From NCBI RefSeq assembly GCF_000372725.1, contig NW_005202427.1, forward strand, positions 1,152,459 through 1,216,458: 64,000 bases of DNA, in the 5' to 3' direction. This document shows positions 17,443 through 64,000 of the stretch, piece by piece. Numbering within the stretch: position 1 is the first letter of the stretch; each line of letters begins with the position of its first letter. Source of the stretch: Emiliania huxleyi CCMP1516 (Eukaryota). The notes below the pieces were generated by a model. It was not told where the DNA came from. It searched no databases and was given only the letters and a program-made list of their open reading frames with translations. The position numbers were made by a program, and so were the translations under genes.

Positions 17443-20086
17443 CGTCCGGCCGTGCCCCGCGGGGGCGCGGTCGGCACCAGAAGGGGGTTGATACGTTCTC
17501 TAGAGACGACGTAGTCGTGGACGGCCGCAATCACAATGGACGGACACGACGAGACGAGTGTGAAAGCACGGAGGCAACAAAACACACTAGGGTTCGGGAG
17601 AAGGCTAGGGTTAGGGAGAGAGTGCCTGACGGGCTTCGGCCCGACGTCCCCCCCCTCGACTTAGTCGAGTAACGACATAGTCGAGTAACCGTGCACTCTC
17701 GGATCACGATGCGTTAGGGAACGTGATGTTCATGACCGGAGATTTGATGTTCATGATCTTGTCACGAAGCTCGAAGAACCGTTTGGGCTTGAGCGGCTTC
17801 GTGAAGAAGTCGGCGAGGTTGGCGTCGCTACGCACGAAGGGGACGCAGAGGCGGTGCGCCTCGATGGCCTCGCGGATGTAGAAGTGGCGTCGCTCGACGT
17901 GCTTGAGCTTGCCATGGTGCTCCGGGTTGTAGGCGGAGGCGATGGCGGCCTGGTTGTCGACGTAAAGCTTCGTCGGCGGGCGCGGGGAGCCATCGGGGAG
18001 CGCGTCGACCTCCTCCTGCAGACGCCGGTACTGCTCGACGTCCTTGGTCGCCTCCGAGGCGGACATGATCTCGGCCTGGCAGGAAGAGAGGGAGACGGTG
18101 GGTTGCTGTTGAACCCTCCAGTCAAGCGTGGCGCCCCACAGGCGGACGAGCCAGCCAGACGTGGATCGACGGGCCGACCAGTCGGCGTCGCTGAAGGCGT
18201 GGAGCTCGTCGTCGGCGGCCGACTCGCCCCGACCGTTGTAGGTAAGACCAAGGTCAGGGTACTCGCGGAGGTAGCACAGGACGCAGTACACCTCCTCGAA
18301 CAGAGCGGGTGTGGGCTTCGCCATGGCCCGGCAGAGGAGGCCGACGGGGAGCGCGATGTCGGGGCGCGTGTTCGAGACGAGGTAGAGAAGAGCCCCGAGG
18401 CAGCTCTGGAAGAGGCGGACGACGCGCAGCTCCCTCTCGCTGGTGTCGTCGGTGGCCGCTTGAACTCGCTCTGCGATGCTGAGGGTGAACGGCGTGTTGT
18501 TGGAGTGACGGGCGCCGGGCTCGGCGGGGTTCGGGAGCTCGGCGATGATCTGGTCGAGGTACTCGTCGAGGAGCTTGCGCACGTACGGCCCCTGCCCGAC
18601 GTGAACACCGCCCTCGGCGAGTGGGGTGACCTGGACGTTGAGGATGTCGGAGAGCGGGCCCTCGTCCTCAGATTTCCACGAGGCGTCGATGTCGCGAACG
18701 AACTGCGCGTAGAGCGAGTCGGAGACAAGAGCCCCCTCGGCGTCGTACTCGGCGTCGCGCTTGTAGAAGATGATGAGATCGTCGACGTAGACTCCGATGA
18801 TGAGCTCGTCGTCCTCAGTGGTGATGCGGTAGATGCAGGGGTCCTCCTTGGACGGGATGAGGCCGGCGCCTCCTTCGTCGCGGGGACGCTCGAGCCAAGC
18901 AAAGAAAGCGCGCTGGAAGCGCCGCCCCGCCTGCTTCATGCCGTAGAGGGGCTTGAGGATGAGGCAGAGCTTGGGCTTGCCGTTCTCGTCGAGAGCGTTG
19001 GCGTGGCCGGCGGGCTGATGCATGAAGGCGATCTCGCCGTCCTCGAGAACTCCCTGGAGGAAGGCGGCGACAAGGTCGCGCCTACGAGCCTTGAGCCCGC
19101 GGCGGGCAGCAATGTTGAGAAGGAGGCGAAGGGAGGGCATGCGCAGGGTGGAGCAGAACGTCTGGTTGTAGTTCTCGCCGAACCTCTGGCTGGACCCGTC
19201 GAGACAGCAGCGGGCTTTGTGTTTGCCATTTCGCTTGGTCTTGTAGACCCAAGTGGCACGAGTGGTAGTGAACTCTTTGCCGTGCTGCAGGGCGATTCGT
19301 CGGGCCTCGGCGTAGGTGACGTAGCACCATGTGGAGCCGGCCTCGACGCACTCCTCCATGGTGCACTGGCCACGGATGAAGCGCTCGACAAAGCGGGGAT
19401 CGTCTGCTTTCCCGCTATGGTTGCCAAGCTCCTCGAGCTCGGCGGTGAACCAGGCTGCGTCGCCTCGTTGCGCGTCCTGTCGCATGGCTTGCCCGTGGCC
19501 GGATGGATCGCGCGGTCCGGCAGAGGTACGTGCAGCCAAGATGTGGAGCCCGGGTCGGGGGTGGCCAAATTTCACGATGGCACCAGAGGCAGGTGTGAGG
19601 CCTCTGTCGAGGGCGGCGTTGACAGGAAAGTCACTGTCGGAGCAATGTCTGAGCCTCCCGGGAGTACTCGAGGCATCGCCGACAGAGGGGTCGGGGGTGG
19701 AGCCGGCACGGCGTCCGACGACCCCGTGGTGCTCTGGCTTCTTCAGAAGCGGCTTTTGCGATGACTGCGACATCTTTGGCGGGGACCTCTCCGAGGCTCC
19801 CCGCCATCGATTCGCCGGCCATATCTGGGATAGCGTGAAGGGACTCCCCCAAAGTGCTGGTCGTGACCAGTTGACGCTGCCACGTCCGGCCGTGCCCCGC
19901 GGGGGCGCGGTCGGCACCAGAAGGGGGTTGATACGTTCTCTAGAGACGACGTAGTCGTGGACGGCCGCAATCACAATGGACGGACACGACGAGACGAGTG
20001 TGAAAGCACGGAGGCAACAAAACACACTAGGGTTCGGGAGAAGGCTAGGGTTAGGGAGAGAGTGCCTGACGGGCTTCGGCCCGACG
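17443..20086 (-). mobile_element. Ty1/copia LTR retrotransposon, internally deleted, 2644 bp
   Basis: Identical 204-bp LTRs (17443-17646, 19883-20086), 5-bp TSD GCCTC (17438-17442, 20087-20091), TGG-initiated PBS-like site after the 5' LTR, GAGGGGGGG PPT before the 3' LTR. Confidence 0.95.
17704..19773 (-). CDS. Copia reverse transcriptase-RNase H ORF
   Basis: KAR, DL..AFLQG, LYGMKQAGR, YVDDL, FSDADW, RRSTSG, SSCQAE, YVDNQAAI, KHVERRHFYIRE, NLADFFTKPL. Start approximate (MSQSSQ). Confidence 0.93.
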   Translation of the reverse strand: MSQSSQKPLLKKPEHHGVVGRRAGSTPDPSVGDASSTPGRLRHCSDSDFPVNAALDRGLTPASGAIVKFGHPRPGLHILAARTSAGPRDPSGHGQAMRQDAQRGDAAWFTAELEELGNHSGKADDPRFVERFIRGQCTMEECVEAGSTWCYVTYAEARRIALQHGKEFTTTRATWVYKTKRNGKHKARCCLDGSSQRFGENYNQTFCSTLRMPSLRLLLNIAARRGLKARRRDLVAAFLQGVLEDGEIAFMHQPAGHANALDENGKPKLCLILKPLYGMKQAGRRFQRAFFAWLERPRDEGGAGLIPSKEDPCIYRITTEDDELIIGVYVDDLIIFYKRDAEYDAEGALVSDSLYAQFVRDIDASWKSEDEGPLSDILNVQVTPLAEGGVHVGQGPYVRKLLDEYLDQIIAELPNPAEPGARHSNNTPFTLSIAERVQAATDDTSERELRVVRLFQSCLGALLYLVSNTRPDIALPVGLLCRAMAKPTPALFEEVYCVLCYLREYPDLGLTYNGRGESAADDELHAFSDADWSARRSTSGWLVRLWGATLDWRVQQQPTVSLSSCQAEIMSASEATKDVEQYRRLQEEVDALPDGSPRPPTKLYVDNQAAIASAYNPEHHGKLKHVERRHFYIREAIEAHRLCVPFVRSDANLADFFTKPLKPKRFFELRDKIMNIKSPVMNITFPNAS

Positions 20087-20091
20087 GCCTC

Positions 20092-20898
20092 TACAATATA
20101 CTCACTGACACTGAACCTCCCAGAGCTCGTCCCGGTCCGTCACGGCCATCCTCGTCCTCCGGCGGGCCCCCGGCCGCGGCGCGGTGCGGCGGCGTCACAA
20201 ATCCGACCACAGAGCACCGGGACGCGGTCGGGCGATCTGAGGCCCAAGTAGGCGAATGCATAGCCCATCCAGGGCTATCACCTGGACCTATCAACAGGCG
20301 CCTGCGGCGCCGTGCTCAGGAGTTGGTTTTCACTCGCTCGAATGTGTGCCACCATGTTTGTCAAGCGCCTCTTCATGCTCCGCCACGTCGCGCCGTACCT
20401 CGTCGGCACTGCTTAAATGATCGCCGACGTCTTCACCAAGACGCAGGCGACGCGAGCTATGTTCTTCACCTGTCGCGACTACATGCTCAACGCCAGCAAC
20501 GGCCCCGGCTTTGCTGTGACGCTCCAGGGGCAGGCTGCCCGGCTGTGGAGCAAGCTCGTCGCGACCGTCGGCAAGGCGTGAGTCATCACCCCTTCGCCGA
20601 AGACGCGCGAGTCGTCCGAGATAGTTGCCGATGCAACTAGGGGGGAGCGTTAGAGACGACTCTCTCTCTCCCAACTGTGAACAGTCGTTATCTGTATATG
20701 CGCAGCTATTCATAGCCGCGCCTGTTGTTTGTGTGTGTATCCGCGCTCTTGGCGCGATTACGAGACTGAGTAGTGTGTCGCACTAGTTGTACTTTTCGTA
20801 ATAGTATTCCGCATTCATTGCGAGGGCGGACCACTCCTAGCGTGCAGACCGCGGGAGCTGGTGCCGCGGCCAGTGTAGACCTGTCCTGCGCTGTGACG
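20092..20898 (+). mobile_element. Degenerate older copia remnant (RNase H end, PPT, probable LTR)
   Basis: ...VAPYLVGTA*MIADVFTK at about 20385-20440; AGGGGGGAG at 20639-20647 followed by CGTTA...TGACG. Confidence 0.6.
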
Positions 20899-25331: not shown

Positions 25332-27458
25332 ATGGCGTCCACGGACTTGACGGCTACCGTGGGCAAGTACCTCGACCGGCACATGCTCCTGCCCCTGCTC
25401 GACTTCCTGGGATCGAAGAAGATCTTCCCCGACTCGGAGCTCGACGCCGCGCGGCTGCAGGTGCTGGAGAAGACAAACATGGTCGACTTTGCGATGGAGA
25501 TCTACACAAAGCTGAACCAGGGAGAGGTGCCCGCCGAGATGCGGGCGAAGCGCGACGAGGTGATGACCGCCCTCACGGCGCTGCAGCTCGAGGTTGGCCC
25601 GCTGTACCAGATCGTCTCGGACGGGCCGCTCGTCGCAAACCTGCGCGCGGAGCGGTGCTTCACGCCGGCGTTCCTGCTGGAGCAGCACAGCGTGACCGCG
25701 GAGCACGTCGCGGCGCTGGGCAAGTACGCCAAGTTCACCTACGACTGCGGCAACTACGGCGCCGCTGCGAGCATGCTGAGCTGTTTCCGGCTGCTGACCA
25801 GCTCTGCCGACGAGGCCTTCTCGGCACAGTGGGGGAAGCTTGCGTGCGACATCCTGAACGGTGCGTGGGACGCGGCGCTGGAGNNNNNNNNNNNNNNNNN
25901 NNNNNNNNNNNNNNNNNNNNNNNNNNNNNNNNNNNNNNNNNNNNNNNNNNNNNNNNNNNNNNNNNNNNNNNNNNNNNNNNNNNNNNNNNNNNNNNNNNNN
26001 NNNNNNNNNNNNNNNNNNNNNNNNNNNNNNNNNNNNNNNNNNNNNNNNNNNNNNNNNNNNNNNNNNNNNNNNNNNNNNNNNNNNNNNNNNNNNNNNNNNN
26101 NNNNNNNNNNNNNNNNNNNNNNNNNNNNNNNNNNNNNNNNNNNNNNNNNNNNNNNNNNNNNNNNNNNNNNNNNNNNNNNNNNNNNNNNNNNNNNNNNNNN
26201 NNNNNNNNNNNNNNNNNNNNNNNNNNNNNNNNNNNNNNNNNNNNNNNNNNNNNNNNNNNNNNNNNNNNNNNNNNNNNNNNNNNNNNNNNNNNNNNNNNNN
26301 NNNNNNNNNNNNNNNNNNNNNNNNNNNNNNNNNNNNNNNNNNNNNNNNNNNNNNNNNNNNNNNNNNNNNNNNNNNNNNNNNNNNNNNNNNNNNNNNNNNN
26401 NNNNNNNNNNNNNNNNNNNNNNNNNNNNNNNNNNNNNNNNNNNNNNNNNNNNNNNNNNNNNNNNNNNNNNNNNNNNNNNNNNNNNNNNNNNNNNNNNNNN
26501 NNNNNNNNNNNNNNNNNNNNNNNNNNNNNNNNNNNNNNNNNNNNNNNNNNNNNNNNNNNNNNNNNNNNNNNNNNNNNNNNNNNNNNNNNNNNNNNNNNNN
26601 NNNNNNNNNNNNNTTCCCCACCCTTGCTCCGATAGTTGTTTGTAGGGGTCGTCCCCACCCCAGGGCAGAGAAGGGGCGGGGATAACTCCCCCCCCCCCCC
26701 CCTGCCTACACACACTCGCCGCCCACCCACCCAGCCGAGCCGCCGCAGGTCACGTCCTTTCTGAACACTTCCGAGACACTCCCGAGACACTTCCTCCACC
26801 CTACTCGGACCCGCAGGTCACGTCCTTTCTGGACGACCTCTACGGCAGCGCAAACTTTGAGAGCGCGCAGGAGCGGCTGGCGGCGTGCGCGGCGACGCTC
26901 GACTCCGACTTCTTCCTCTGCAACGCCGAGGGCGACTTTGTCAAGTACGCGCGCCTCCACCTCTTCGAGGGCTACTGCCGCATCCACGAGCGGATCGACC
27001 TCGGCTCCCTCGCGCAGAAGCTTGGCACACGCCGCCCTAGATCCGCACACACGCCCTCTCGTACTCCAGCCAGCGCTCGAGAGGACACGCACTCCGCCGT
27101 ACTCACTGCCTCTCGCAGCCCCTCGTACTCACGCGGTGCCCTGGAGACTGCCCACAGTGCCCTCTTCCCGCCCTCATGTCTGCGCACCCACCGCGCAGGC
27201 ATGGAGCGGATCGCCGCCGAAAAGTGGATCGTCAAGATGGTCTCGGACGCGCAGCTCAACGCAAAGATCGACTCAAAGTCTAGCCACGTCATCCTCGGCG
27301 CCCAGCCGCCCGACGTGTACCAGCAAGTCATCGAGAGGACAAAGGGCCTCTCCTTCCGCTCCTACGTCCTCGCACAGAACCTGCAGCAGCGCGAGCAGCA
27401 GGCAGCGCGCGCGGCCAAAGTCGAGCTGCAGGAGGCGGCGGCGGCCGCGGCGCAGTGA
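25332..27458 (+). CDS. EIF3E: Translation initiation factor 3 subunit E (Int6), interrupted by an assembly gap
   Basis: DLT..VGKYLDRHMLLPLLDFL, TNMVDFAM, YAKF.YDCGNY, WGKLACDIL, ARLHLFEGYCRIH, AEKWIV.MV.DAQLNAKIDS, VYQQVIERTK.LSFRS. Confidence 0.95.
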
Positions 27459-49110: not shown

Positions 49111-49405
49111 GCCTGCGGCGAGGGCGGTCGAGTGCACGGAGCTAAGTGCCTCGCCGTCCTCGCAGGAGTCGCCAGGCGGCTCCCGTTGTGTACCTGTGTT
49201 AGTGCCTGCGCCAGAGCATGCTCCCAGTTTGGATGGAACCCAGCCAGTCCCGTGCCCAGTGTCGTTCGTGCGAGGGAGCTAAACAGACAAACCAAACGAG
49301 GGATGGACGCCCACGTAGGTGAAATTCTTTATTCCGCCGCGGGGCGCCGCGAATGAACTCTCCTCTTTCTCCTTGGACGCAAACGGTTTTCTTCTTCCTG
49401 GCGGC

Positions 49406-51049
49406 ATGAGCGGCGCCATCCTCCCAACCCGCCTCGCCGACCTGGCTCGGGGCGACCTGGCCTCGCTGCGCGCCTTCCTCTCCGGGCGGCGGACGCGCGG
49501 CACGTCGCTCGCGGCCCAGCTCGACGCGCGGCTCGACACCGAGAGGCAGGACACGCTGCTCACCTGGGCCGCTCGGCACGGGCAGGCCGAGGGGGCGCGG
49601 CTGCTGCTCGAGGGCGGCGCGAGCGTCGGGGCGACGACTGGCGGCGGCGCTTCCGCGCTGTATATCACGTGCCAAGAGGGGCAGATTGAGTGCGCCCGGC
49701 TGCTCGTCGAGGCTGGCGCGGCGACCGACCAAGCAGACGCTGGAGGCCGCACGCCGCTGTTCATCGCGAGCGAGAAGGGCCACGTCGAGATCGCCCGGCT
49801 GCTGCGCGACGCTGGCGCTGGCATCAACCAAGCCAAGCAGTGCGGCGCCACGCCGCTGCTCATGGCGAGCCAGCAGGGCCACCTCGAGTGCGCCCGGCTG
49901 CTCCTCGAGGCTGGCGCGGCGGTCAACCAAGCCAAGCAGAACGGCGCCACGCCGCTGAACATCGCGTGCCAGAAGGGCCACCTCGAGATCGCCCGGCTGC
50001 TCCTCAAGGCTGGCGCGGCGGTCAGCCAAGCCGCGGCGAACGGCGCCACGCCGCTGTTCATGGCGAGCCAGAACAACCACCTCGAGATCGCCCGGCTGCT
50101 GCTCGAGGCTGGCGCAGCGGTCAACCAAGCGATGAACGGCGGCGTCACGCCGCTGTCCATCGCGTGCCAGCAGGGCCACCTCGAGACCGCCTGGCTGCTC
50201 CTCGAGGCTGGCGCGGCGGTCAACCAAGCCATGGGTGACGGCGCCACGCCGCTGTACATCGCGTGCCAGCAGGGCCACCTCGGGTGCGTTCGGCTGCTCC
50301 TCGAGGCTGGCGCGGCGATCGACCAAGCCCATGAGAACGGCGTCACGCCGCTGTACGTCGCGTGCCAGAACAACCACCCCGAGACCGCCCGGCTGCTCCT
50401 CGAGGCTGGCGCGGCGATCGACCAAGCCCGCAACAACGGCGCCACGCCGCTGTTCATGGCGTGCCAGCAGGGCCAGCTCGAGTGCGTTCGGTTGCTTCTC
50501 GAGGCTGGCGCGGCGATCGACCAAGCCAGGCAGGACGGCGCCACGCCGCTGATCATGGCATGCTTCAACGGCCACCTCGAGGTCGCCAAGCTCCTATCCT
50601 CCTACGGCGCCTCCCGCGCCGCTACGCCCTTCGGCACGCCCGAGGAGGCCGCAAACCGTGAAGGCCACGCCGACCTCGCCGCCTGGCTGGTCGCCAGCCG
50701 CGGCTGGACGCCGCTCGCGCACCTTGAGACCCTCACCGCCGCCCGCGCCACCGCCCTCCTGCGCAGCGGTGCAAGCCTGCACGAGGGCGAGCCGACGCCG
50801 CTGCGGCGCGCCGCGGGCGGCGAGGGCGAGGCGGCGGCGCTGATCCGGCGGGCGGCGGCGCCGTGGTCGCCGGCAAGCCACTCGCTCTTCCCCGCGGCGG
50901 CCCGCGCGCGGGCGGCGCTCCTCGTCCTCTCGCTCTACGAGATCCACGAGCGGTACCACCTCGACTCGGCCGGAGCCACGAACGGCATCGCGGCGCTCGA
51001 CTTTGGCCACTGCGTCTTGGGCTTCGCCATCGCGCGCGAGACGGAGTAG
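49406..51049 (+). CDS. Ankyrin-repeat protein (about 11 repeats), single exon
   Basis: 33-aa units G.TPL..A.Q.GH.E.ARLLLEAGAA.NQA. Confidence 0.95.
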   Translation: MSGAILPTRLADLARGDLASLRAFLSGRRTRGTSLAAQLDARLDTERQDTLLTWAARHGQAEGARLLLEGGASVGATTGGGASALYITCQEGQIECARLLVEAGAATDQADAGGRTPLFIASEKGHVEIARLLRDAGAGINQAKQCGATPLLMASQQGHLECARLLLEAGAAVNQAKQNGATPLNIACQKGHLEIARLLLKAGAAVSQAAANGATPLFMASQNNHLEIARLLLEAGAAVNQAMNGGVTPLSIACQQGHLETAWLLLEAGAAVNQAMGDGATPLYIACQQGHLGCVRLLLEAGAAIDQAHENGVTPLYVACQNNHPETARLLLEAGAAIDQARNNGATPLFMACQQGQLECVRLLLEAGAAIDQARQDGATPLIMACFNGHLEVAKLLSSYGASRAATPFGTPEEAANREGHADLAAWLVASRGWTPLAHLETLTAARATALLRSGASLHEGEPTPLRRAAGGEGEAAALIRRAAAPWSPASHSLFPAAARARAALLVLSLYEIHERYHLDSAGATNGIAALDFGHCVLGFAIARETE

Positions 51050-51355
51050 GCCGGAGTCTCGGTGAGAGTCTTTGCCTCGGCTCCGACCATGGTCGTGGCT
51101 CGTGAGCTGCTTGCTGTCTTGTGAATCGTGTCGTGCGACCGCGTTTTGTTCGAAGTGTGCGAGAAATTTCTTTATTCCTCTTTCTCAGCCTCCGCGTACT
51201 CAACCCAGGGTACAGCGAGCTCCAGCCATTGCAGCCGCTACCACAGGTGTGTGAACCGAACCCCAAGGCAGCGAGCAGCCCTCCGCAAGACCGAGCCCCC
51301 GCGAGGTTGACAGCGGAGTAGGCTGGGGCTATACCAGACAGCGGCGAGCTCGGGC

Positions 51356-54300
51356 ATGTTCGCTTGTTTATCTCTCTCTCTCTCGGCTCATGCATTTTCT
51401 GGAGGCCCCCGCCAGCTGCAAAGCTGGCTGTTCGGCTGGCCAGAGAGCGACAGCAGCAGCAACGCGACCAGCAGCAACGCGTGGGATGGGTCACTCATAG
51501 ACGTCGACACACCGCTGGAAGAGCTCGAGACGGTCGGCCTTGGCGATGGCGAGAGCTACCGGCTGGTCATGTCGGACGAGTTTGAGACCGAGGGCCGCCG
51601 CTTCAGCGAGGTCTCGAGCGTCTGAGCGCCCTCGCTTCCACCAGCTCGTCCCGTCAGCTGTCTCGCTCGCCGTCTCAGGTGGACCGCGACCCGATCTGGA
51701 CGGCCGTCGCAAGGCACGACCCGACGAACGGCAACCTGGCATACATGACGCCGCAGATGGTGAGCACTCACGCGGGCGCGCTCGAGATCTACACCACAAA
51801 CACGGGCTTCCGCGCCTCGCGGTACGCCTCCGGCTCCGTGCAGTCGTGGGAGAAGGCTTGCTTGCAGGGCGGCATCGTCGACGTCTCCTTCTCCCTGCCC
51901 GGCGAGCCGGGCGCGCCTGGCGTCTGGCGCGCACCCCTCCGCCGCCCTCCACCGCCTGGCACTCTGCTCCTGCCGCCAGCTCACCGGAGGCGCTGCCACG
52001 CCACGCACCGCCATCTCGATGCTCACTCACTCTGCTTCTGTCTACGCCACGCCAGGCCCGCCATCTTGTCACAGGCCCGCCATCTGGATGCTCGGCAACC
52101 TCGGGCGGGCCACCTACCCGCTCTCGAACGATGGCCTCTGGCCCTTCTCCTTCGGCGCGTGCGACCGGTCTCTCGGAGGCCAGGCGGCACGCTAGGGCTC
52201 GGCGCCATAGCCTCGGCGCCCTCCTGGAACCTTCCTGGAACCTTCCCATCAGCTCGGCACCCTCCACCACAACAGACACACGAGCCGACTCGCCACAGCA
52301 CACACCGCTACCCCGTGCCCGCCACTGCCCGCCACTGCTCGCCTCTGCCCCCCCGCGGGACTCTCCTCCCCCGCGGGACGGTGCTGTCGGCCTGCTCGGA
52401 CCGTAACACAGGAGCCTTCTAGGAGCCTTCTAGGAACGTTCTAGGTGCTGTCGGCCTGCTCGGACCAGCCAGCGCGCGGCTCGGGGCTGCGGCCGTACCA
52501 GGGGCGAGGCGTGCCGGAGGTGGAGCTGCTCGAGGACATGTCGCAGGACATGTCCGCGATATGTCCGAGACATGTCACATAGGCGTGCCGGAGGTGGACT
52601 TGCTCGAGGCGCGCCCGTGCGCCGACATCGCCGCCGCCAGCGACAGGCCCGCGCTCGCGGTGGCGCACAACAACCTCACGTGCGGCATCACAACCTTCCA
52701 GGCGCAGCCTCGGGCATCGCAGCCAGAGCCCCGCAGCAGCAGCCAGAAGAGCCCCGCGCCACGCCGCCGCCCAGGCGCCGCCGCCCCCCCGGGTCTCACG
52801 CCCAACCTCTGTGGCGACAGGTTGCGCCACGCCTGCCGGGCCGGCTCCGTCCGAACCACGGCTCCTTCCCGTCGGCGCGCCGGCCTTGGTACCCCAACCT
52901 GACTTTCGGCCGCCGCTCCGAGATCGACGCCCTCTGGTACGGAGGGGACCACTTCGACTCGCTCGGCGCCTACTTCCCGCTCTCTCCCTCCTACCACACC
53001 CCGCCCCGCGCACCGCACTCCGGCGCCGGAGCCTACTCCGGCGCGGCCGCGGCGGCGGAGGCGGCCGGAAGCTACGGCGGCTTCGGCAGCTCGCTCTTCG
53101 ACGCGAGCGCCGCTCTCTCCCCCCGCCGCCTCGGCGTCTCTCGAGACGTCACCCGGCGTGCCGGCGGGCGTAGGCGGGCTTCTTCGGCGCGCCGCCCGCC
53201 GACGCCCTCCCGAGGACCGACCGCGGCCTTTCGCACTTTCGGTTCGAGTACGAGCCGGGCGCGGACGGCTTCATGCGATGGTTCCTCGACGGCGCGCGCA
53301 GCCCAGCACGAGCCCGCCCACGCCCACGCGTCCTAGAAGTTTCCCAGAAGGTTCCCAGAAGGTTCCCAGAAGGTTCCTAGACGGTTCCTGGACGGTTCCT
53401 GGACGGTTCCTGGACGGTTCCTAGAAGGTTAGAAGGCACGAGCCCGGCCACGCAGTCCCGCACTCCCCAGCCACGCACACTCCCGACCCGGCCCCGCCCG
53501 CCGCCGCCCTCGTCGCACGCGCGCCCTCGCCGCCCCGTGCCGCCGCCCAAGCCGCCCTCTCCCCTGCCCGCAGGATCGCTCGTCTTCGAGGCGACCGGCG
53601 AGTCGCTCCGCCCGCGCCGCGTCCCCGGCGGCGGGCACGTCGGCCAGCGGCTCGTGCCGGAGGAGCCGATGCCCCCCATCGTCTCTCATCGTCTCTCATC
53701 GTCTCTCATCGTCTCTCATCGCCTCTCCGCTGTACCCCGTCACAGGAGCCTATGTACCTCATCATCTCGGCCGCCGTCTCGCGCGTCTTCTCGGGCAGGA
53801 TCGACCAGGCCATCTTCCCGACAGTCTTCCGCATCGGCCACGTCCGCTTCTACCAGCGCGCCAGCGGGCGGCAGCGCACCTCGTGCTCGCCCCCCGACCA
53901 CCCGACGGCGGGCTGGATCGCGCAGCACTGGTGGGCAAACGGCAAGCAGGCGCCCCCCTCGGTCGACAACCTGCTCCGCGCCTCCGTCCTTCTCTCGGGC
54001 TGCGTCGCCGCACTCGGCGCCCTCGCGCTGCTGCTGAGTGAGGAGCACGTCCGCCTCGCGCTCGCACTGCTGTTCGGCGCCTTCTTCTGCGCCGCGCTCG
54101 CCTCCGCCGGCCTCGCCCGCTACCTCGGCGTCTCTCCCGACGACGCGTGGCTCGGGCCGCAAACCGCGGGCGGCGACAGCGCCACCAGCTCGCTCACGCT
54201 GTCGGCCGGCGTGCCGCTGCGCAGCCACGTCTGGAGCTTGTCTGGAACCATCTAGGACCCTTCTTGGAGCTTTCTAGGCGTGTCGCTGCGCAGCCACGTC

Positions 54301-57300
54301 TGGAACTTGTCGGCGGAGCGGGCTCGGGCGGCGTCGCTCGCGCGGTGCGGCTCGCCGAGAGGGAGCCGAGACATGCCCGACGCGTAGCCGAGAGGGGTCC
54401 GAGAGGGGTCCGAGAGGGGTCCGAGAGGGGTCCGAGAGGGGTCCGAGAGGGGTCCGAGAGGGGTCCGAGAGGGGTCCGAGAGGGGTCCGAGAGGGGTCCG
54501 AGAGGGGTCCGAGAGGGGTCCGAGAGGGGTCCGAGAGGGGTCCGAGAGGGGTCCGAGAGGGGTCCGAGAGGGGTCCGAGAGGGGTCCGAGAGGGGTCCGA
54601 GAGGGGTCCGAGAGGGGTCCGAGAGGGGTCCGAGAGGGGTCCGAGAGGGGTCCGAGAGGGGTCCGAGAGGGGTCCGAGAGGGGTCCGAGAGGGGTCCGAG
54701 AGGGGTCCGAGAGGGGTCCGAGAGGGGTCCGAGAGGGGTCCGAGAGGGGTCCGAGAGGGGTCTTGTCGCGCGACTCTCCGATCGGGTGGGGCGGCGACGG
54801 TTCCGCGGCGCGAGGCAGGAGGTGCCTAGAAGGTGCCTAGAAGGTGCATAGAAGGTTCCGCGGCGCGAGGCAGGAGGTGCCTAGAAGGTGCCTAGAAGGT
54901 GCCTAGAAGGTGCCTAGAAGGTTCCACGGCGCGAGGCAGCCTGGCCGTGGCCGCAGGCTCTTTGCCGATCGCCTCGTCTACCTCGCTTGCGTCGTCGAGG
55001 CGGCGGTGGTGGGCGGCTTGCTGCTGACCATCCTCTCGGAGCTCACTCTCTGCCTGGCGACCGCCTTCTCCGTCTCGCTCCTCGCGCTGCAGGCGAGCCG
55101 CACGCACCGCACCGCCTCGCACCGCACCGCACCGGACCGCACCGCCTCGCACCACCTCGCACCACCTCGCACCGCACTGCCTCGCACCGCACTGCCTCGC
55201 ACCGCCTCGCACCGCACCGCCTTGACTCTGGCCGCCTTGACTCTGGCTCCGTCGGGCAGCAGGCGAGAGCGCTGCCCCGCCTGCTCTAGGAACCTTCTAG
55301 GAACCTTCTAGGAACCTTCTAGGCGAGAGCGCTGCCCCGCCTGCTCGTGGCTCTCTTGGGCGCGCTTGCCGCCAGGGAGGGCGGGCAGGACGAGGGCGGC
55401 GGTCGGGTCGGCTCTCTGTCCGCCGCCGTTCCGCTGCCGCCGGTCGGGCCGCCGCTTCCGCATCCGCGCGGCTGGTCGGCGGGCGAAGAGCTCTCCCTGC
55501 TCCTCTTCCCCCTCTTCCTCTTTGTCGCGCTCGTCTCGGGCTTGGCTGCCATTCACGTCCGCAAGGCGTTCCTCGAGGCCGCGACGGCGTTGTGCGGCGC
55601 GCAGCTGCTTTGGCTCGGCGCCGCAAGCTTGGCGGGCGGCGAGGCGATGCTGGACGTGCGGCACTAGGAACCTTCTAGGAACCTTCTAGGAACCTTCCGA
55701 GAGGGGTCTAGGCGATGCTCGACGTGCGGCACGCCGTCGAAGGGCTCGCGGGGTCCGGCGTGCAGGGCGACCTCGGCAGGAGCTCCTCGCCGTGGGCTGC
55801 GCCGGTGGTGGTCGCCCTTACCAGCGTCGCCTTGCTGCGCCACGCCCGCTGCCTGCGCCGGGGCAGCTGGACCCGCTCCCCTTCTAAGTCAACTGTTAAT
55901 TAACTGTTAATTAATGTTGAATTACTACTAGGCAGCTGGACCCGCTCTGCCGCGGCCTCGGTGTGCGTGTGCTGCAGGCCAAGGTCCGAGGCGGGGCTGT
56001 GGTCTCTGGTGTGGCGGGCGAGCGGTCAGCTCTGGCAGGAGCTGGCGGATGACGTCGACGACGAGGAGGACCCCGCCGCCAGCCCGTCTGCAGCGGAGGC
56101 GCGTCGCGGTCGACGTCTGCCAGGCGCAGCCGTCGGTCGAGCGCTGGTGGCTAGCCACCGCCCGCCGGCACGGGCAGAGGCGGCCACGAAGGGCAGCCTG
56201 TCCGGTGGCGGCCACCTCCTCGCGCCGGCTCCTCGCAGCCAGCCGCCAGCGGGGGAGGCGCGCCGCTCCCCGCTCGTCTCCGCCGCAAGCTCGGCTGGCC
56301 TCCGCCGGGTCGTCTCCGCCGAAGCCTTCACCGCCCGGCCGGCCCCTTGGTGGGGGGACCCTACGGCCCCTTGGTGGGGGGACCCTACGGCCCCTTGGTG
56401 GGGGGACGGCTCGCCGCCGGAGGAGAGGCGGTGGCTGCCGCCGCTGCAGCAGTGCACCGCGGTGGATGCGAGCGGGGCGCTCGGCAGTCCCGTGGTGAAG
56501 CAGCTCTGCGCCGTCGCCGCCGCGTTTGAGGCCGACTTCGGCTTCCAGCGCCCGGTGGTGTGCAACCAGCTCGAGCACTTGCTCCGGCTGCTCGCCGCGA
56601 GAGCGGCGCGCTTACCCTTCTCCGCCCCCGAGCGTGCGGCGCGCGCCGCCGACTCGCTCCATGCGCACCTCTTTGCGTCGTACTTCACCTGGTGCGAGCA
56701 CGTGCGCGCCGAGCCGCGCTGCTCTCCCGCAGCAGCGCGGGCGAGGCACGGGCCGGGCGCTGCGGGCGGGGCGGCCGAGGCGGGCGGCGAGGAGGCGGGC
56801 GAGGGCGGGCTCGCCGAGGCGGAGGCTCGCCGGGCAGAGTGCCTGCTCTACTTGCTCGTTTGGGCCGAGGCGGCAAACTTGCGCCACGCATCAGAGGCCG
56901 TCTGGTGGCTCTTCCACCAGCTCTCCGACTTGGCGAAACCGCTGCCGCGCCCCTTCGCGCTGGCGAGCGTGGCGCCGCTCTACGCGTCGCTCGTCCACCT
57001 CTTCTGCGAGCGAGCGCACCCACTCAACTACGACGACGTCAACGAGGCCTTCTGGCGACCCGACTGCCTCGGGTGGAGCCTCGAGGGGAGCGGCGCCGGC
57101 AGTGCCGCCGCGCAGCTCCGCGGGCTGGCAAAGGAGTACCGCGAGCGCCGCTCCTGGCTTCACATGCTCGGTGCGTTCGAGCACGTCTACTTTGCGCACT
57201 GGATCATGCTGCGGCTGATGCTCGGCGCGACGCTCGGCCTCAACACCTGCATCGCCGCCGAGTTCGGCGTGCCCTGCGAGGCGGGCGAGGAGTCGGACGC

Positions 57301-60300
57301 CGTGCTGGCACCAGGAACCTTCTAGGAACCTTCTTGGAACCTTCTAGGCGGGCGAGGAGTCGGACGCCGCGCTGCGCGTGTTGCAGTTCGAGGCGACCCT
57401 CGTGGTGGACGTGCAGGCGTACCGCGTCCTCTCGGGCTTGCTGCAGCTGTGGGCGCGCTTCCCCACCTGCGACCCGCCTGCCAAGCTCGACGCGGTGCTG
57501 CGCGTCGCGCTCGACCTGCTCCTCTCTCTCGCGCTCAACGTGGCGCTCTGGTTCTCGCTCCGCGACCAGCACCTGCACCACTGGGCGATGGCGCTGCTGC
57601 TCTCGATCGCCGTCTTCGTGCGGCCGACCCTGTCCAGCCTGCGCTTCCTCGTGGTGCGGCCGGGCGGCGGCGGCGGCGGCGGCGGAAGCAGTGGTCAGCC
57701 CAGTCTGGGGCGCGAGCGGCTGCTCTCGCTGTTTGGCATCGAGGTGAATGCACTGCGATTGCACTGCTCTCGCTGTTTGACATCGTTAATTCCCTGCGAA
57801 TTGCCTGCGAATTGCCTGCTAACTCTAACTGCTCGCTGTTTGGCATCGAGGTTGCCAACGGGCCGCTCCCCGCGAGGCACGTCCGGCCGACGAGCTGGTG
57901 AAGCACTCAATCAATGGACTGATGAGTGGCTGCTACTAACCATAGGCACGTCCGGCCGACGAGCTGGAGCGCGCTCGCTTTCTGGCTGACGCTGTTCAGC
58001 GTGCACTGCCTGCTGGTGCAGCACTACATCGCGGACGCGCTCGTCGTCGACACGCTCGGCCTGCTCTACTCCTACTTTGGGCGAGCACCTAGAAGGTTCC
58101 AAGAAGGTTCCTAGAAGGTTCCTAGGCCTGCTCTACTCGTACTTTGGGCGCTCGCTCACCGGCAGCTCCGGCATCGGCCTCGGCCAGCTGTTTGTGCTGC
58201 TCCTCTGCATCTGGGTGCCGGTCATCCTCTTCTTCCACCGGGAGGAACCTTCTAGGAACCTTCTTGGAACCTTCTAGGTGCCGGTCATCCTCTTCTTCCT
58301 CGTGAGCTTCTCGCTCACCTTCACACTCTGGGTGCTCGTCGTCGGGCTCTGTCGCGGGCTCGGCTCCCTCCGCATCGCACCCGAGCTCGGCCTGCCGCAG
58401 CTGCTCGCCGCCGACCGTGGACAGAACCTTCTAGGACCCTTCTTGGAACCTGCTAGGCCTGCCGCAGCTGCTCGCCGCCCACTTTGACCCGGCGGCCGAC
58501 CGCTTCGAGCAACGCTGGCTCGCCAGCCGTCCGGCCCGGCTGCCCCCCAGCCCGGTCCCTGCCCAGCGAGGGTTGCGGGCGAGCCCGTCCTTTGCACCGA
58601 CTGCGCGCGGGGAGGGTGGCCGTGGCTCGCCAAATGTGATTGCCGAGGAGGCTGACGAGGCGGAGGAGACGATGATGGCGGCGGCGGCGGAGGAGGAGGC
58701 GGAGAAAGAGCTTGCGGAGGAGGAGGCGGAGGAAGAGGCTGCGGAGGAGCAGTTGCTGGGCGAGCTCGCCAAGGGGGGGGCGTGGGCCGTGTCGGCGGGG
58801 GGGCGCTCGGTCTCGCTCCCAGCAGTCGCCAATGGGTCGCGAGACGGCGCCCTTCCGCCAGACGAGGACGCGCCCGCGGACTTGTCGGGGCTACGGCCGG
58901 CCGCCCAGTCCGGGCGCCCCTCCCGTGGTGGGACATCTCCTCACGGCCCGGCTCCTGTGAGGCGTAGGCTGCTCGGTCGGCTGCCTGCGCGGGGCGGCTG
59001 GGGCTTTGCGCAGTGTTGGAACACGATGCTCCACGAGATGCGGCGGCAGGATTTGGTCGACAACTCCGAGGAGACCCGGCTGCAGTTTGCGATCGTGCCG
59101 CGCGCCGTCCACCCGCCGCCGCCCGCTGCGGTCAGCGCCGCCGCCAGGGCGTGGCAAGAGCGGCCGCCGGTGCCGGGCAGTCTGCCGCCCCTGCCGCGCG
59201 CCGAGGCTGCGCCCGACGGCACGGCATTGCCGCTGCTTCTCCCGCCGCCGCTCGGGTCTCTCAAGCGCGCGCTCAGTGCGCTCCTCGCGGGCTGCCCCGT
59301 CGAGTCGCTCCCGACGCTCTGCCGCCTCTCGCTGGCGGGTGCGGCCGACATCGCGATGGCAGTTGTCTGGCCGCTGCTCGGCGCCGCGCACCAGCCCGAC
59401 GTGGCGCTCGCCCTCCGAGCCCTCGCCGCTGTCGTGCCCCCGATCGCGCCAGCCACCGATGCGTCTGCCGCCGGCTCGGCCGGCCAGTCCCGCCCTTGCG
59501 GCGCGCTGCCGCCCGGCCTCCGCTCGGAGCGGGTGCTCTACGGGCTGCGCAAGGCGCTACAGCGGTGCGAGGCCTCCTCCCTCCACGAGCCGCCTCGGAG
59601 CCTCTCGGGACCTGTCTGTAGGCGCTCGTCGAGCGAATTCGTTCCTGCGAATGAGCACTGATAGACCACTCATAGAACTGTCTCAGGCGCTCGTCGAGCT
59701 GTGCGAGGCCATCTTCGCCATGATCGTCGCCTTTGATGGCCGCGCCGCCCGAGGCGTCGCTAACCCTAACCCTAACCCTAACCCTAACCCTAACCCTAAC
59801 CCTAACCCTAACCCTAACCCTGACCCTAACCCTAACCCTGACCCATACCCTAACCCTAACCCTAACCCTAACGCCGCCCGAGGCGTCGCGGCGCCTAACG
59901 GCTGATTAACTGTACTCAACTACTACTAACCACTCAGTAACTGTCTCGAGGCGACGCGGCGCCTAACGGCCGTCTCGCCAAGCGGTCGGCGAGCGTAGCG
60001 TGCCTGGCGTCGGCCGCATCGCACCCGCACGACAACGGGCTCGCCGCTAGACCGGCGGGCGGCGCCGGCGGGCTAGAGGGCAGCAACGCCGCGCAGGCGC
60101 CAACGGACGGCCCGCTCGAGTCGGGACAGAACGGTGGGGGTGGACTGCGAACGACGGAGCGGCCGCAGATGGGCGACGGCGGCGGCGGCGGCGGCGCCTC
60201 GGCCGGCTCGGGCGTCGGCTTGCGGCACGCGCTGCGCTCGCGCTCCTTTGGCGATTCGCTCTCGAGCTTGTCGCGCGTCGTCTCGCTCAAGGGGCTCTCG

Positions 60301-63300
60301 CGCGACCTCTCGCGGCTCGACCTCACCGCCAGCCTCAACGACCTCACCGCAGCCCTCTCGCTCGCGCGCCGCCGCAGAGGCGTGACGCGCGTGCGCATCG
60401 CAGACATCGCCTCGGCCGAGGGCGCCGCCGTGCGCTCTGCGGCGCTGCCAGCGATCCAGCAGGCGCTCGCCTCTAAAAGACTACTAATAAGCTAATAATC
60501 AGCTACTAACAAAGTACGATCCAGCAGGCGCTCGCCTCGCTGCTGGCGTGCCTCCAGCACGCCTGCCTCGCAGCGGCGGCCGCGCGCCCCAGCCGTTCCG
60601 CCGCGCAGGACGAGGTGCGCGGCGCGCTCGGCGCCGCCGCCAACGCGCTGCAGGCCACCCTCGCCCACCCGACCCTTGGCTTTTGGGCGGACAGCAGCTA
60701 CGCGAGTGCGTCGCTCGCCAGCCTGCTCCGGCACGAGCCCAACCTTGAGGCGATCGCGGTCCGGCTGCGGCGCATGCTTTCGCTGTCGCCGACGCCGAGG
60801 CCGCTCCGCTCCAACGAGGCGATGCGCCGGCTGCGCCACTGGCTGCGCTCGCTCAAGATGGATGCACCGGAGGCGCCTCCGGTGGCGGAGATGCAGTCGT
60901 GGTCCATCCTGACGCCCGTCTACAAGGAGACAGTCCTCTACTCGATGGCGGATTTGGAGGAGGAGTCGAACGACGGCCGCTCCTTCATCGAGGTGTGCTG
61001 CGCGGAGTCACTTACTAGCCCATTCCTAGCTAGCATGCAGGCTCATTCGTAGCTCACTGGCCGCTCCCTCCTCGAGGTGCTGCGCGGCCTTCACCGCGAC
61101 GAGTGGGCAAACTTCGCGCAGCGGCTCGGCGAGTCGCCCTCCGCGCTCAGCGTCGCGCGCTGCGCCTCGGAGCCGAGGCTGGCCCTCCAGCTGCGGCTGT
61201 GGGGCCTCTAGGAACCTTCTCGGAACCTTCTTGGAACCTTCCTTAGGCTGGCCCTTCAGCTGCGGCTGTGGGCCTCGATGCGAGGCCAGACTCTCGCGCG
61301 CACCGTCTACGGCATGATGCACTACGAGTCGGCCTTGGCCTTCCTCGAACCTTCTCGGAACCTGCTCGGAGCCTTCCTTAGGCATGATGTACTACGAGTC
61401 GGCCTTGGCCTTCCTCGTGGCCGTGGAGGCGGGTTCAGCGGGAGGCGGCCCCGCCCCCCCTCTGCCCGCCGCCTCGCAGACCGCCGCCGCCAGTGCCTTG
61501 GCGCAGCGCAAGGTGGGCTACGTGTGCGCGTGCCAGGTCTATGGCGACTACAAGCGGGCGGGCGACCCGCGAGCGGTCGATATCGAGGCGCTTATGCACG
61601 CCTTCCCTTCGCTGCGGGTCGCCTACGTCGAGCGCAGGGGCGGCGGCGGCGAGGGAGGGGGGGAGGAGGAGGAGGAGGCGTGGGCGGCGATGCTGGTGTG
61701 CTCCGATGGGGAGGGGGGCGTGAGGTGCGAGAGCCGCGTCGGCCTCCCCGGCAACCCGATCCTCGGCGAGGGCAAGCCCGAGAACCAGAACGTGGCGCTG
61801 CCGTTTTGCCACGGCGAGAGGGTGCAGATGGTGGACATGAACCAAGAGGGGTACTGGGAGGAGGCGCTCAAGATGCGGCCGCTGCTGCAGGAGTTCGAGT
61901 CGTCCGCCAAAGCCGGGCCGGTGACCGTCATCGGCTTCCCGGAGCACATCTTCACGCAGTCGTCCGGCTTCGTCACCGCCATCTTCATCGGGCTGCAGGA
62001 GCGCTACTTCGGCTCCTTCGTGCAGCGTGTGCTCGACGAGCCGCTGGACGTTCGGCTGCACTACGGCCACCCCGCCCTGCTCGACAAGCTGCACTTCTTC
62101 TGGGAACCGTCTTGGAACCTTCTTGGCACATTCTAGGCCACCCCGACCTGCTCGACAAGCTGCACTTCGCCACGCGCGGCGGGGTGAGCAAGGCGTCCAA
62201 GGAGATCAACTTGAGCGAGGACATCTTTAGCGGGTACAAGACGGTGCTCGCCGGCGGCTGCGTCGTCTTTCGCGAGTACCACCTCGTGGGCAAGGGGCGG
62301 CCCACAAACCTGATGGAGATCACCGGCTTCTTCGCGAAGCTCTCCTCCGGCTCCGCCGCGTCGCTCACGACGCGCGACGTGGCGCGCTTCGCCGCCAGCG
62401 CGCCGCTCGTGAAGCTCTTCTCGTACTACTACTCGGCCATCGCCTTTTACGTGCACGACGTGATCGTGATGCACGTGACGGTGCCTCGCCCCGCGCCTGT
62501 CCCTCGCCCCGTGCCCGCGCGCGCGAGGGATGGATGGCGAGCACCGCACTCCTCATTGCGGATGGCCGAGCAGGTCCTCATCCCCTACCTGCTCGCGATG
62601 CTCGCGCTCGTCGGCCTCGATCACCGCTTCAACAACTACGAGGCGCAGCCCCTCTCGCTCTTCGCCCTGCTCCCGCTGCTGCTCTCGCTCATGACGGCCC
62701 TCCCGCTCTTGCGTGTCTGTAACGACTGCCCATCCTCTTCATCACGTGCTTCCCCGTCGTAGGCCGTGCCCGCGCTCTGCATGGTGCTGGTTGAGAGAGG
62801 GCCTCGCCGGGCCCTCTCCTTCTTGCTTGGGATGGCCATCACCGCCTCGCCCGTCTACTTCATCTTTGTCGCGCAGACAAAGTCCTTCCACTTTGCGCGC
62901 ACCGTCACGGCGGGCGGCAGTTCATTAGCAGCTAATTCGTAGCTTATTTAGTAGCTGATTCGTAGCTTCGTAGTAGCTTATTAGTAGCTTATCAATCACC
63001 ACAGGCGGGCGGCGCGTCCTACTTCGCCGCGCGGCGGAACGCCTCAGTGCTTCACACGCCCTACCACGAGCTGCACGCGCGCTTTGCGCACTCGCACCTC
63101 TACGTCGCCGCCGACGTGTACGTCTTTCTCTGCATGGCGCACGTCTGGTCCGTCTCGGACCGGCTCTTCCTCACGACGTGGCCCACTTGGGCGGTGGCTT
63201 CGTGCTTCGTCCTCGCGCCGCTGCTGTACAACCCGCAGCAGCTCGAGGCGTGGCAGGTCAAGGCGGACGTGCGCGGCTTCTGCGGCTGGGTGACGGGCGG

Positions 63301-64000
63301 AGGCTGGGAGGAGTGGTACGCGCGGCTGCACGGGCCGCCCGCGCGCGGGGGCATGGCCGCCGAGGACGCGGCGTGGAACGAGCAGTTCGGACGCGTCTCT
63401 GTCGCGGCGTTTTACTCGTTCATCGCCTACCTCATCCCGCTCCAGACCAATGTCGACAACTTCGCCGCCACGCGGGGGTGGGTGTGCGAGCCGCGCCTCG
63501 TCTGCACGGGCGCAACCTACCTCGCCTCGCTCGTCGCCCTCGCCGCCGCCGACTTGCGCCCCCACCGCTCGGCGCGCGCGCCGTCGAGCCGCCGCCGCCG
63601 CGCCTGCTACGTCGCGGCCGCCACCCTCTGTGCGGCCGCCACCCTGCAGCTCGCGGCGGCGTGCGCCGTTTTGGGGCCGGCGAGCAGCGCCGCTGGAAAG
63701 GCCCTCTGCGCGCCCGACTGCCGTTTGCGGAGGCGCCTCGCTGGCCTGTAGGCCGGCCTCGCTCGCACCGCCTCGCTGCGCAAGCGGCTGTGCGTCGCCG
63801 CCCTGTGCGTCTACGCTTGCGCAGGCGCTGTCGGGTCGGTGCTGGAGACGTCCGCCAATGCGCCCTCTCTGTCTGAACCTCTTTTGAACCCTTCTCCGAG
63901 CCTTGGATAGGTGCTCGAGCTCGCTGCCAACATGCGGGCGACGGCGGACGTCGCCGCGCCGCTGCTGAGGCTCGCCCACAAGGCGCGCGAGAGCGTGGAG
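51356..64000 (+). CDS. Fused KRE6/SKN1-like GH16 transglycosylase + GT48 1,3-beta-glucan (FKS/callose) synthase; many introns; probably runs off the window
   Basis: GH16: LIDVDTP, LVMSDEF, YASGSVQSW, PAIWMLGNLGRATY, GRGVPEVDLLEA, PEEPMYL. GT48: FGFQ..V.NQLEHL, LYLLVWAEAANLR, NYDDVNEAFW, LTPVYKETVLYS, WASMRGQTLARTV.GMMYY, LPGNPILGEGKPENQN, DMNQ..Y.EEALKMR, RLHYGHPD, TRGGVSKASK.INLSEDIF.GY, VGKGR. Confidence 0.9.
54388..54762 (+). repeat. Perfect intronic 11-bp repeat (CCGAGAGGGGT)n
   Basis: About 34 identical units. Confidence 0.97.
59760..59872 (+). repeat. Interstitial telomere-type repeat (CCCTAA)n inside an intron
   Basis: About 18 units with a few CCCTGA/CCCATA variants. Confidence 0.95.

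Follow-up and report, generated by a model that had tools for sequence, protein, structure and literature searches.

The making of beta-1,6-glucan has long been an unanswered question. The closest described systems bring together, or keep apart, a GT48 glucan synthase and a GH16 domain of the KRE6/SKN1 type. A GT48-GH16 fusion was called restricted to oomycetes in the available portion of a 2026 paper (PMC13612389). The oomycete fusions (P0269 and its Phytophthora, Pythium and Saprolegnia orthologs) consist of a hydrophobic N-terminus, an SKN1/KRE6 GH16 domain, a multi-helix linker, FKS1_dom1 and GT48. In Schizosaccharomyces pombe, the synthase Bgs3 is coupled across the membrane to the Kre6-related GH16 protein Ghs2, and the ExDxxE motif is required there. 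Unlike the gene reported here, Bgs3 and Ghs2 are two polypeptides joined via one helix, with a cell-wall role and with GH16 located C-terminal to its anchor (PMC13612389, same portion). The third system comprises the stand-alone TGS/Kre6 homologs of haptophytes and diatoms (PhTGS and PtTGS1/2), which carry the same SKN1-type domain with a signal peptide and a C-terminal helix and are implicated in storage glucan. These proteins differ from the present gene in having one helix and a short tail after GH16 and, as does the diatom BGS, in being encoded separately. For haptophytes, the available part of PMC10543733 gives a beta-1,3 to beta-1,6 ratio of about 2:3 in the glucan, reports that knockdown of a stand-alone Kre6 homolog lowers glucan, and names no synthase for this beta-1,6-rich storage product.

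The window, a 64,000-nt stretch of contig NW_005202427.1 from Emiliania huxleyi CCMP1516, was found to carry a fusion of this kind in a haptophyte which, unlike oomycetes, has no known glucan wall. The first-pass annotation had proposed a single-polypeptide GH16 (KRE6/SKN1)-GT48 protein from position 51356 on the forward strand, and this gene was confirmed to be real, transcribed and conserved in divergent relatives. Spliced contigs support this reading, as do the homologous frames of P0144 and L001, which lack introns. Pfam analysis of 19 ORFs gave the forward-strand order SKN1/KRE6 (pieces in 51311-54252), FKS1_dom1 (in ORF 55904-57322) and Glucan_synthase (60510-63748), and this arrangement, read in a single frame with a membrane linker between GH16 and FKS1_dom1, is that of the oomycete fusions. 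When spliced, 51356-63751 yields 31 exons and 2,928 aa with 0 internal stops, versus 30 and 13 stops in the other two frames; this model comprises 21 RNA-supported introns and 9 modelled introns. Identity to P0269 was 33% for GH16 and 40% for GT48, and the P0144 GH16 domain was likewise 33% identical. The oomycete fusions are shorter than the window protein, which exceeds them by about 400-500 aa and has low-complexity inserts; the clade of the window protein, unlike the oomycete fusions, alters the GT48 stretches GKGRD and TGRG.

The best match of the GT48 exon was E. huxleyi EMIHUDRAFT_449354 (P0001, 1,976 aa; XP_005786809; UniRef A0A0D3KF45), which aligned along the window as a series of colinear blocks whose identity reached 97-100%. 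Judged from this colinearity, the two are the same gene. The database model of 1,976 aa is mis-spliced and lacks much of GH16 and many exons, and the only names it bears publicly are "hypothetical protein" and "1,3-beta-glucan synthase". The fusion was nevertheless already latent in public annotation, as the entry lists both PF03935 and PF02364.

Transcript evidence was obtained from a search of sequencing runs, in which 19 runs matched, and 14 of these, from 5 studies, contain 58-62% of the words of 51300-61200; the exonic share of this interval in the gene model is 68%. Contigs from four runs, one per study, were mapped over 51050-54420 and 54700-59765. Only run X9 is recorded as RNA, and the others are presumed to be RNA, with joints at GC/GT/GA-AG sites. 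Twenty intron joints were seen directly in contigs, most of them in all four runs. The 21st, belonging to a tandem-repeat intron, was deduced from contig coordinates: in X4, X6 and X9 alike, the flanking exons are exactly 67 nt apart. This gap equals the length of exon 54278-54344, which accounts for the 67 nt and thereby sets the large intron at 54345-54956 (612 nt, GT..AG), which is filled with an 11-nt tandem repeat not amenable to contig mapping at 54388-54762. Of the five linker introns listed in the first-pass annotation, four (54209-54277, 55093-55322, 55644-55711 and 55863-55931) were exact by contig joints and splice sites, while the bounds of about 54346-54920 given for the fifth were wrong. 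Those bounds were ruled out since they leave an in-frame stop; with the corrected bounds, the claimed open frame from the GH16 end into the FKS1 domain holds, with no stop in the spliced linker.

Much of this path was covered by an X4 contig of 4,233 nt (depth 30.5), recognised by the same length and depth in both mapped intervals, which maps to 51204-57650 and takes in the 5' UTR, GH16, the linker and sequence beyond FKS1_dom1. Over this span the model predicts 4,226 nt and the contig has 4,190, the shortfall corresponding exactly to two in-frame 18-nt deletions in a loop. The passage from the GH16 end to the linker was also bridged by X6 and X9 contigs, and contigs from X1, X6 and X9 extend from the FKS1 exon as far as 59551 and have 310 to 1,506 further letters beyond the mapped part. 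All of these contigs are assembled paths rather than single molecules, and a shorter GH16-only isoform may exist beside the fusion transcript. In the four runs the contigs begin at 51204-51213, which defines a 5' UTR at 51204..51355 (+) with no ATG before 51356. The first ATG of the transcript thus opens a short hydrophobic N-terminus (51356..51397, +), a probable signal peptide.

Downstream of 59700, the model's 9 introns were placed from splice sites together with a local habit whereby the intron start copies the next exon. Across the 30 introns of the model, the donors are 23 GC, 6 GT and 1 GA. The feature described in the first-pass annotation closes at 63751, where the TAG (63749-63751) probably serves as a splice acceptor rather than a stop. 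Probable further coding exons at 63752..64000 (+) have an open translation that by eye resembles the C-termini of P0003 and P0001, and reading past 63751 via a modelled intron at 63839-63910 gave a by-eye match to the C-terminal part of P0003. The EMIHUDRAFT_449354 model has about 60 residues more. The end of the gene likely lies outside the window, some 60 codons further on, and the full protein is likely to be of about 3,000 residues.

The N-terminal catalytic domain (PF03935; 51482..53931, +; aa about 43-490) is spread over 9 exons with joints seen in contigs, and was placed in GH16 of the KRE6/SKN1 type from this domain together with an intact ExDxxE motif. The motif, EVDLLE, which the first-pass annotation had described as intact, lies at 52591..52608 (+; aa 229-234). 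In the synthase part, both PF14288 and PF02364 were found, in the order of FKS proteins. FKS1 domain 1 (56834..57082, +; Pfam E=1e-9), part of the cytosolic accessory domain, is followed by a first membrane bundle at 57152..58370 (+; hydropathy and joints), which is likely equivalent to FKS1 TM1-6, by long low-complexity inserts, and by the GT48 domain itself (60822..63334, +), where the introns are modelled. The catalytic residues of Fks1 are named, and its accessory and GT domains placed in the cytosol, in the available part of PMC12715860. Counterparts of Fks1 Y849/E851, K1082, N1085, D1102/N1104 and E1221/D1222 are present in the window protein: the motifs PVYKE (60915), GKPENQN (61771), DMNQ (61834) and NLSED (62208), all on the forward strand, align to yeast and fungal Fks1 and supply the UDP-glucose-binding Y/E, the K and N, the DxN and the ED, respectively, and a K1261 equivalent lies at 62331 (+). 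The catalytic motifs of both GT48 and GH16 are intact. In the haptophyte GT48 clade, two otherwise conserved stretches are altered, GKGRD to GKGRP/M (62289-62303) and TGRG to an ARRN-like stretch (63026-63040), and one residue is inserted after EHIFT; a link of these changes to product or regulation is possible.

The linker (53980..55837, +; aa 507-799) contains seven hydrophobic segments by hydropathy and some low-complexity stretches. The number of hydrophobic segments was also odd in L001 (seven) and in a third fusion type described below (one strong segment in 5 of 5), while at the hydropathy thresholds used 5 clear segments were counted in P0144 and 8 in P0269. An odd count of linker helices and a hydrophobic N-terminus, both read from hydropathy, would fit a GH16 domain on the lumenal side of the membrane. 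The window linker is weakly TM7S3/TMEM198-like; PF13886 was its best match (E=0.021, below the curated cut-off), as it was for P0178 (0.017) and L001 (0.026), all of them weak. The same family was not found in the linker pieces of P0144 or P0269, but was found in the oomycete proteins P0357 (3.4e-7) and P0364 (3.8e-5). An HMM of the oomycete linker matched no haptophyte linker, and hhalign comparison of the two linkers gave a P of 0.0045 in one alignment and 0.26 in another. Nothing significant came from the linker profile comparison, although of the 22 oomycete segments compared, the linker-overlapping ones took the top two places. In the ESM Atlas there was no usable match to the E. huxleyi linker, and the best matches of the oomycete linker were TM7S3/TMEM198 clusters (0.85-0.86), taken as a lead only. 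Foldseek returned 0 matches at E<=0.001 for a low-confidence AlphaFold2 model of the L001 linker (pLDDT 57.8, pTM 0.33), which was given no weight. The homology of haptophyte and oomycete linkers is only suggestive on these comparisons.

The domain order of the fusion, for which the first-pass annotation had proposed a search, proved common in oomycetes and was also present in P0144. Searching with the GH16 part of P0001 against long proteins gave 3 matches among 1,581 candidates, including P0144, a 2,609-aa single ORF with SKN1 at 47-480, FKS1_dom1 at 932-1041 and GT48 at 1666-2353. A metagenome scan gave 2 loci, including L001, whose 1,056-aa stop-free frame starts in the end of GH16, takes in seven hydrophobic segments and reaches FKS1_dom1. 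Among the best 150 of 501 matches in a search of 50% clusters, P0269 from Aphanomyces stellatus had the same domain order. A profile of P0269, P0144 and P0001 retrieved 58 proteins among 6,881 candidates, and 44 of the 58 carry PF03935 and PF02364 (25 oomycete proteins, 12 at 53-58% identity to P0269 and 7 divergent); PF13886 was listed in 14 of the 58. As this profile missed P0001 and P0144 themselves, it is uninformative on absence in other lineages. A third fusion type, with GH16, a cysteine-rich EGF-like stretch, one strong helix, FKS1_dom1 and GT48, was seen in 5 of the 7 divergent proteins. Two members of this divergent set (P0383-P0386, P0391, P0389 and P0390) are 3,784 and 4,377 aa long.

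The origin of the fusion was addressed with trees whose sampling was query-driven and took in no named haptophyte TGS (PhTGS included) and no cercozoan or other oomycete GT48. For GT48, the tree and topology test used 22 rows chosen from 48. The window grouped with Isochrysis galbana, Pavlovales and P0144 at 100/100, and the oomycete fusions grouped with unfused ochrophyte synthases (89/93); a single clade of haptophyte and oomycete fusions was rejected (p-AU 0.012). For GH16, the haptophyte-type and oomycete fused domains were sisters, with a support of 93 in FastTree (118 rows) and a weak 82/68 in IQ-TREE (51 of the 118 rows), with 4 of the 6 haptophyte-type rows being fragments assumed to be fused. 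The alternative that unites the fused and free oomycete domains was not rejected (p-AU 0.26), but a GH16 clade uniting the three fusion types was (p-AU 0.004). The closest grouping of the EGF-type GH16 domain is with a free protein of Polarella, and on this tree evidence the domain is of separate origin; the GT48 of this type is long-branched. The trees would fit an ancient fusion with loss in ochrophytes as well as fusion on several occasions, and as they stand neither show nor exclude an origin shared with the oomycete fusion.

We consider it probable that this single spliced gene, with its KRE6/SKN1 GH16 domain, seven-helix linker and complete FKS/GT48 part, encodes an enzyme that first polymerises a beta-glucan chain and, on the far side of the membrane, introduces beta-1,6 links into it. 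With the probable signal peptide and the seven helices, GH16 would face the lumen, probably of the vacuole, and the GT domain would lie on the cytosolic side. The synthase would draw on cytosolic UDP-glucose and extrude beta-1,3-glucan, from which the tethered GH16 would cut glucosyl units and re-attach them to O6, as proposed for fission-yeast Bgs3-Ghs2. The product would be the beta-1,6-rich storage glucan of haptophytes, in keeping with the storage role of Kre6 homologs in a haptophyte (PMC10543733). A simple branching step would not explain why beta-1,6 links are in the majority, and the stand-alone Kre6 homolog PhTGS may supply haptophyte branching. According to the available part of PMC7965971, a branching activity of GH16_2 still lacks full demonstration.

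The fusion could instead act at the plasma membrane and make a cell-surface or secreted glucan, like the fungal and presumably the oomycete enzymes, rather than a vacuolar storage glucan. This would agree with the retention of the same layout in walled oomycetes and with a haptophyte GT48 clade that did not group with the diatom vacuolar synthases. We regard it as unlikely, however, since no beta-glucan wall is described in haptophytes in the available part of PMC10543733, and haptophyte GT48 is placed near storage-type enzymes in that of PMC7965971. A hydrolytic GH16 is similarly doubtful; it would trim or release the growing chain so that the storage glucan stays short and soluble, and the beta-1,6 links would be left to stand-alone TGS enzymes. 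These two readings are the chief alternatives. The ExDxxE motif also serves hydrolysis in GH16 enzymes, the solved-structure matches of the domain were laminarinases only (E 2.5e-6 and weaker), and PhTGS exists as a separate enzyme; against this, the domain belongs to the SKN1/KRE6 family, whose tested members link to beta-1,6 branching. Two neighbouring genes, or one transcript with a cleaved product, such that no stable fused protein acts, would be compatible with assembled contigs and with low-complexity stretches in the linker that could be cut, but this is very improbable given 0 stops between the domains after RNA-supported splicing, the intron-free fused frames of P0144 and L001, and the pairing of PF03935 with PF02364 in most of the profile matches.

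The concept of the fusion is not new; it is known in kind from oomycetes and apparently undescribed in haptophytes. No description in haptophytes or other algae was found in the literature covered, from which subscription papers were mostly absent and to which figures did not belong. The available parts of PMC7965971, PMC2173943, PMC3901260 and PMC6260743 describe no haptophyte fusion, and the words "fusion" and "fused" are absent from that of PMC7965971. The E. huxleyi protein may be a leaf in the PhTGS tree figure or in the supplements of PMC7965971 and PMC13612389. Morris 2009 (PMC2705460), which is cited for the oomycete fusion, does not contain "glucan" in its main text or two supplements. 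The window gene is a testable candidate for storage-glucan synthesis in haptophytes. Its host is a major marine carbon fixer. Moreover, coupling of the Bgs3-Ghs2 type becomes directly testable here, as both domains reside on one polypeptide, which can be expressed and in which each domain can be mutated separately.

Several minor features of the window were also recorded. In 12 of the 30 introns (52509-62136), the first 20 nt of the next exon are copied at the intron start with 17-20 of 20 positions matching; a short GAACCTTCT-type repeat often comes next, and one such copy contains a decoy of the GH16 catalytic motif. This pattern looks like intron gain by local duplication. At 59762-59872, an intron contains about 18 copies of the telomere-like repeat CCCTAA. 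An ankyrin-repeat ORF of single-exon appearance (49319-51049) stops roughly 150 nt short of the transcript start, and the fusion contigs, which begin at 51204, showed no join to it. The window contains 1,002 N in total, and an assembly gap of N around 25900-26620 interrupts a gene whose start we take to read like eIF3 subunit E. Finally, a lower-GC stretch at 17707-20139 holds an 811-codon stop-free frame on the minus strand and a 691-codon frame on the opposite strand, and is possibly a mobile element.
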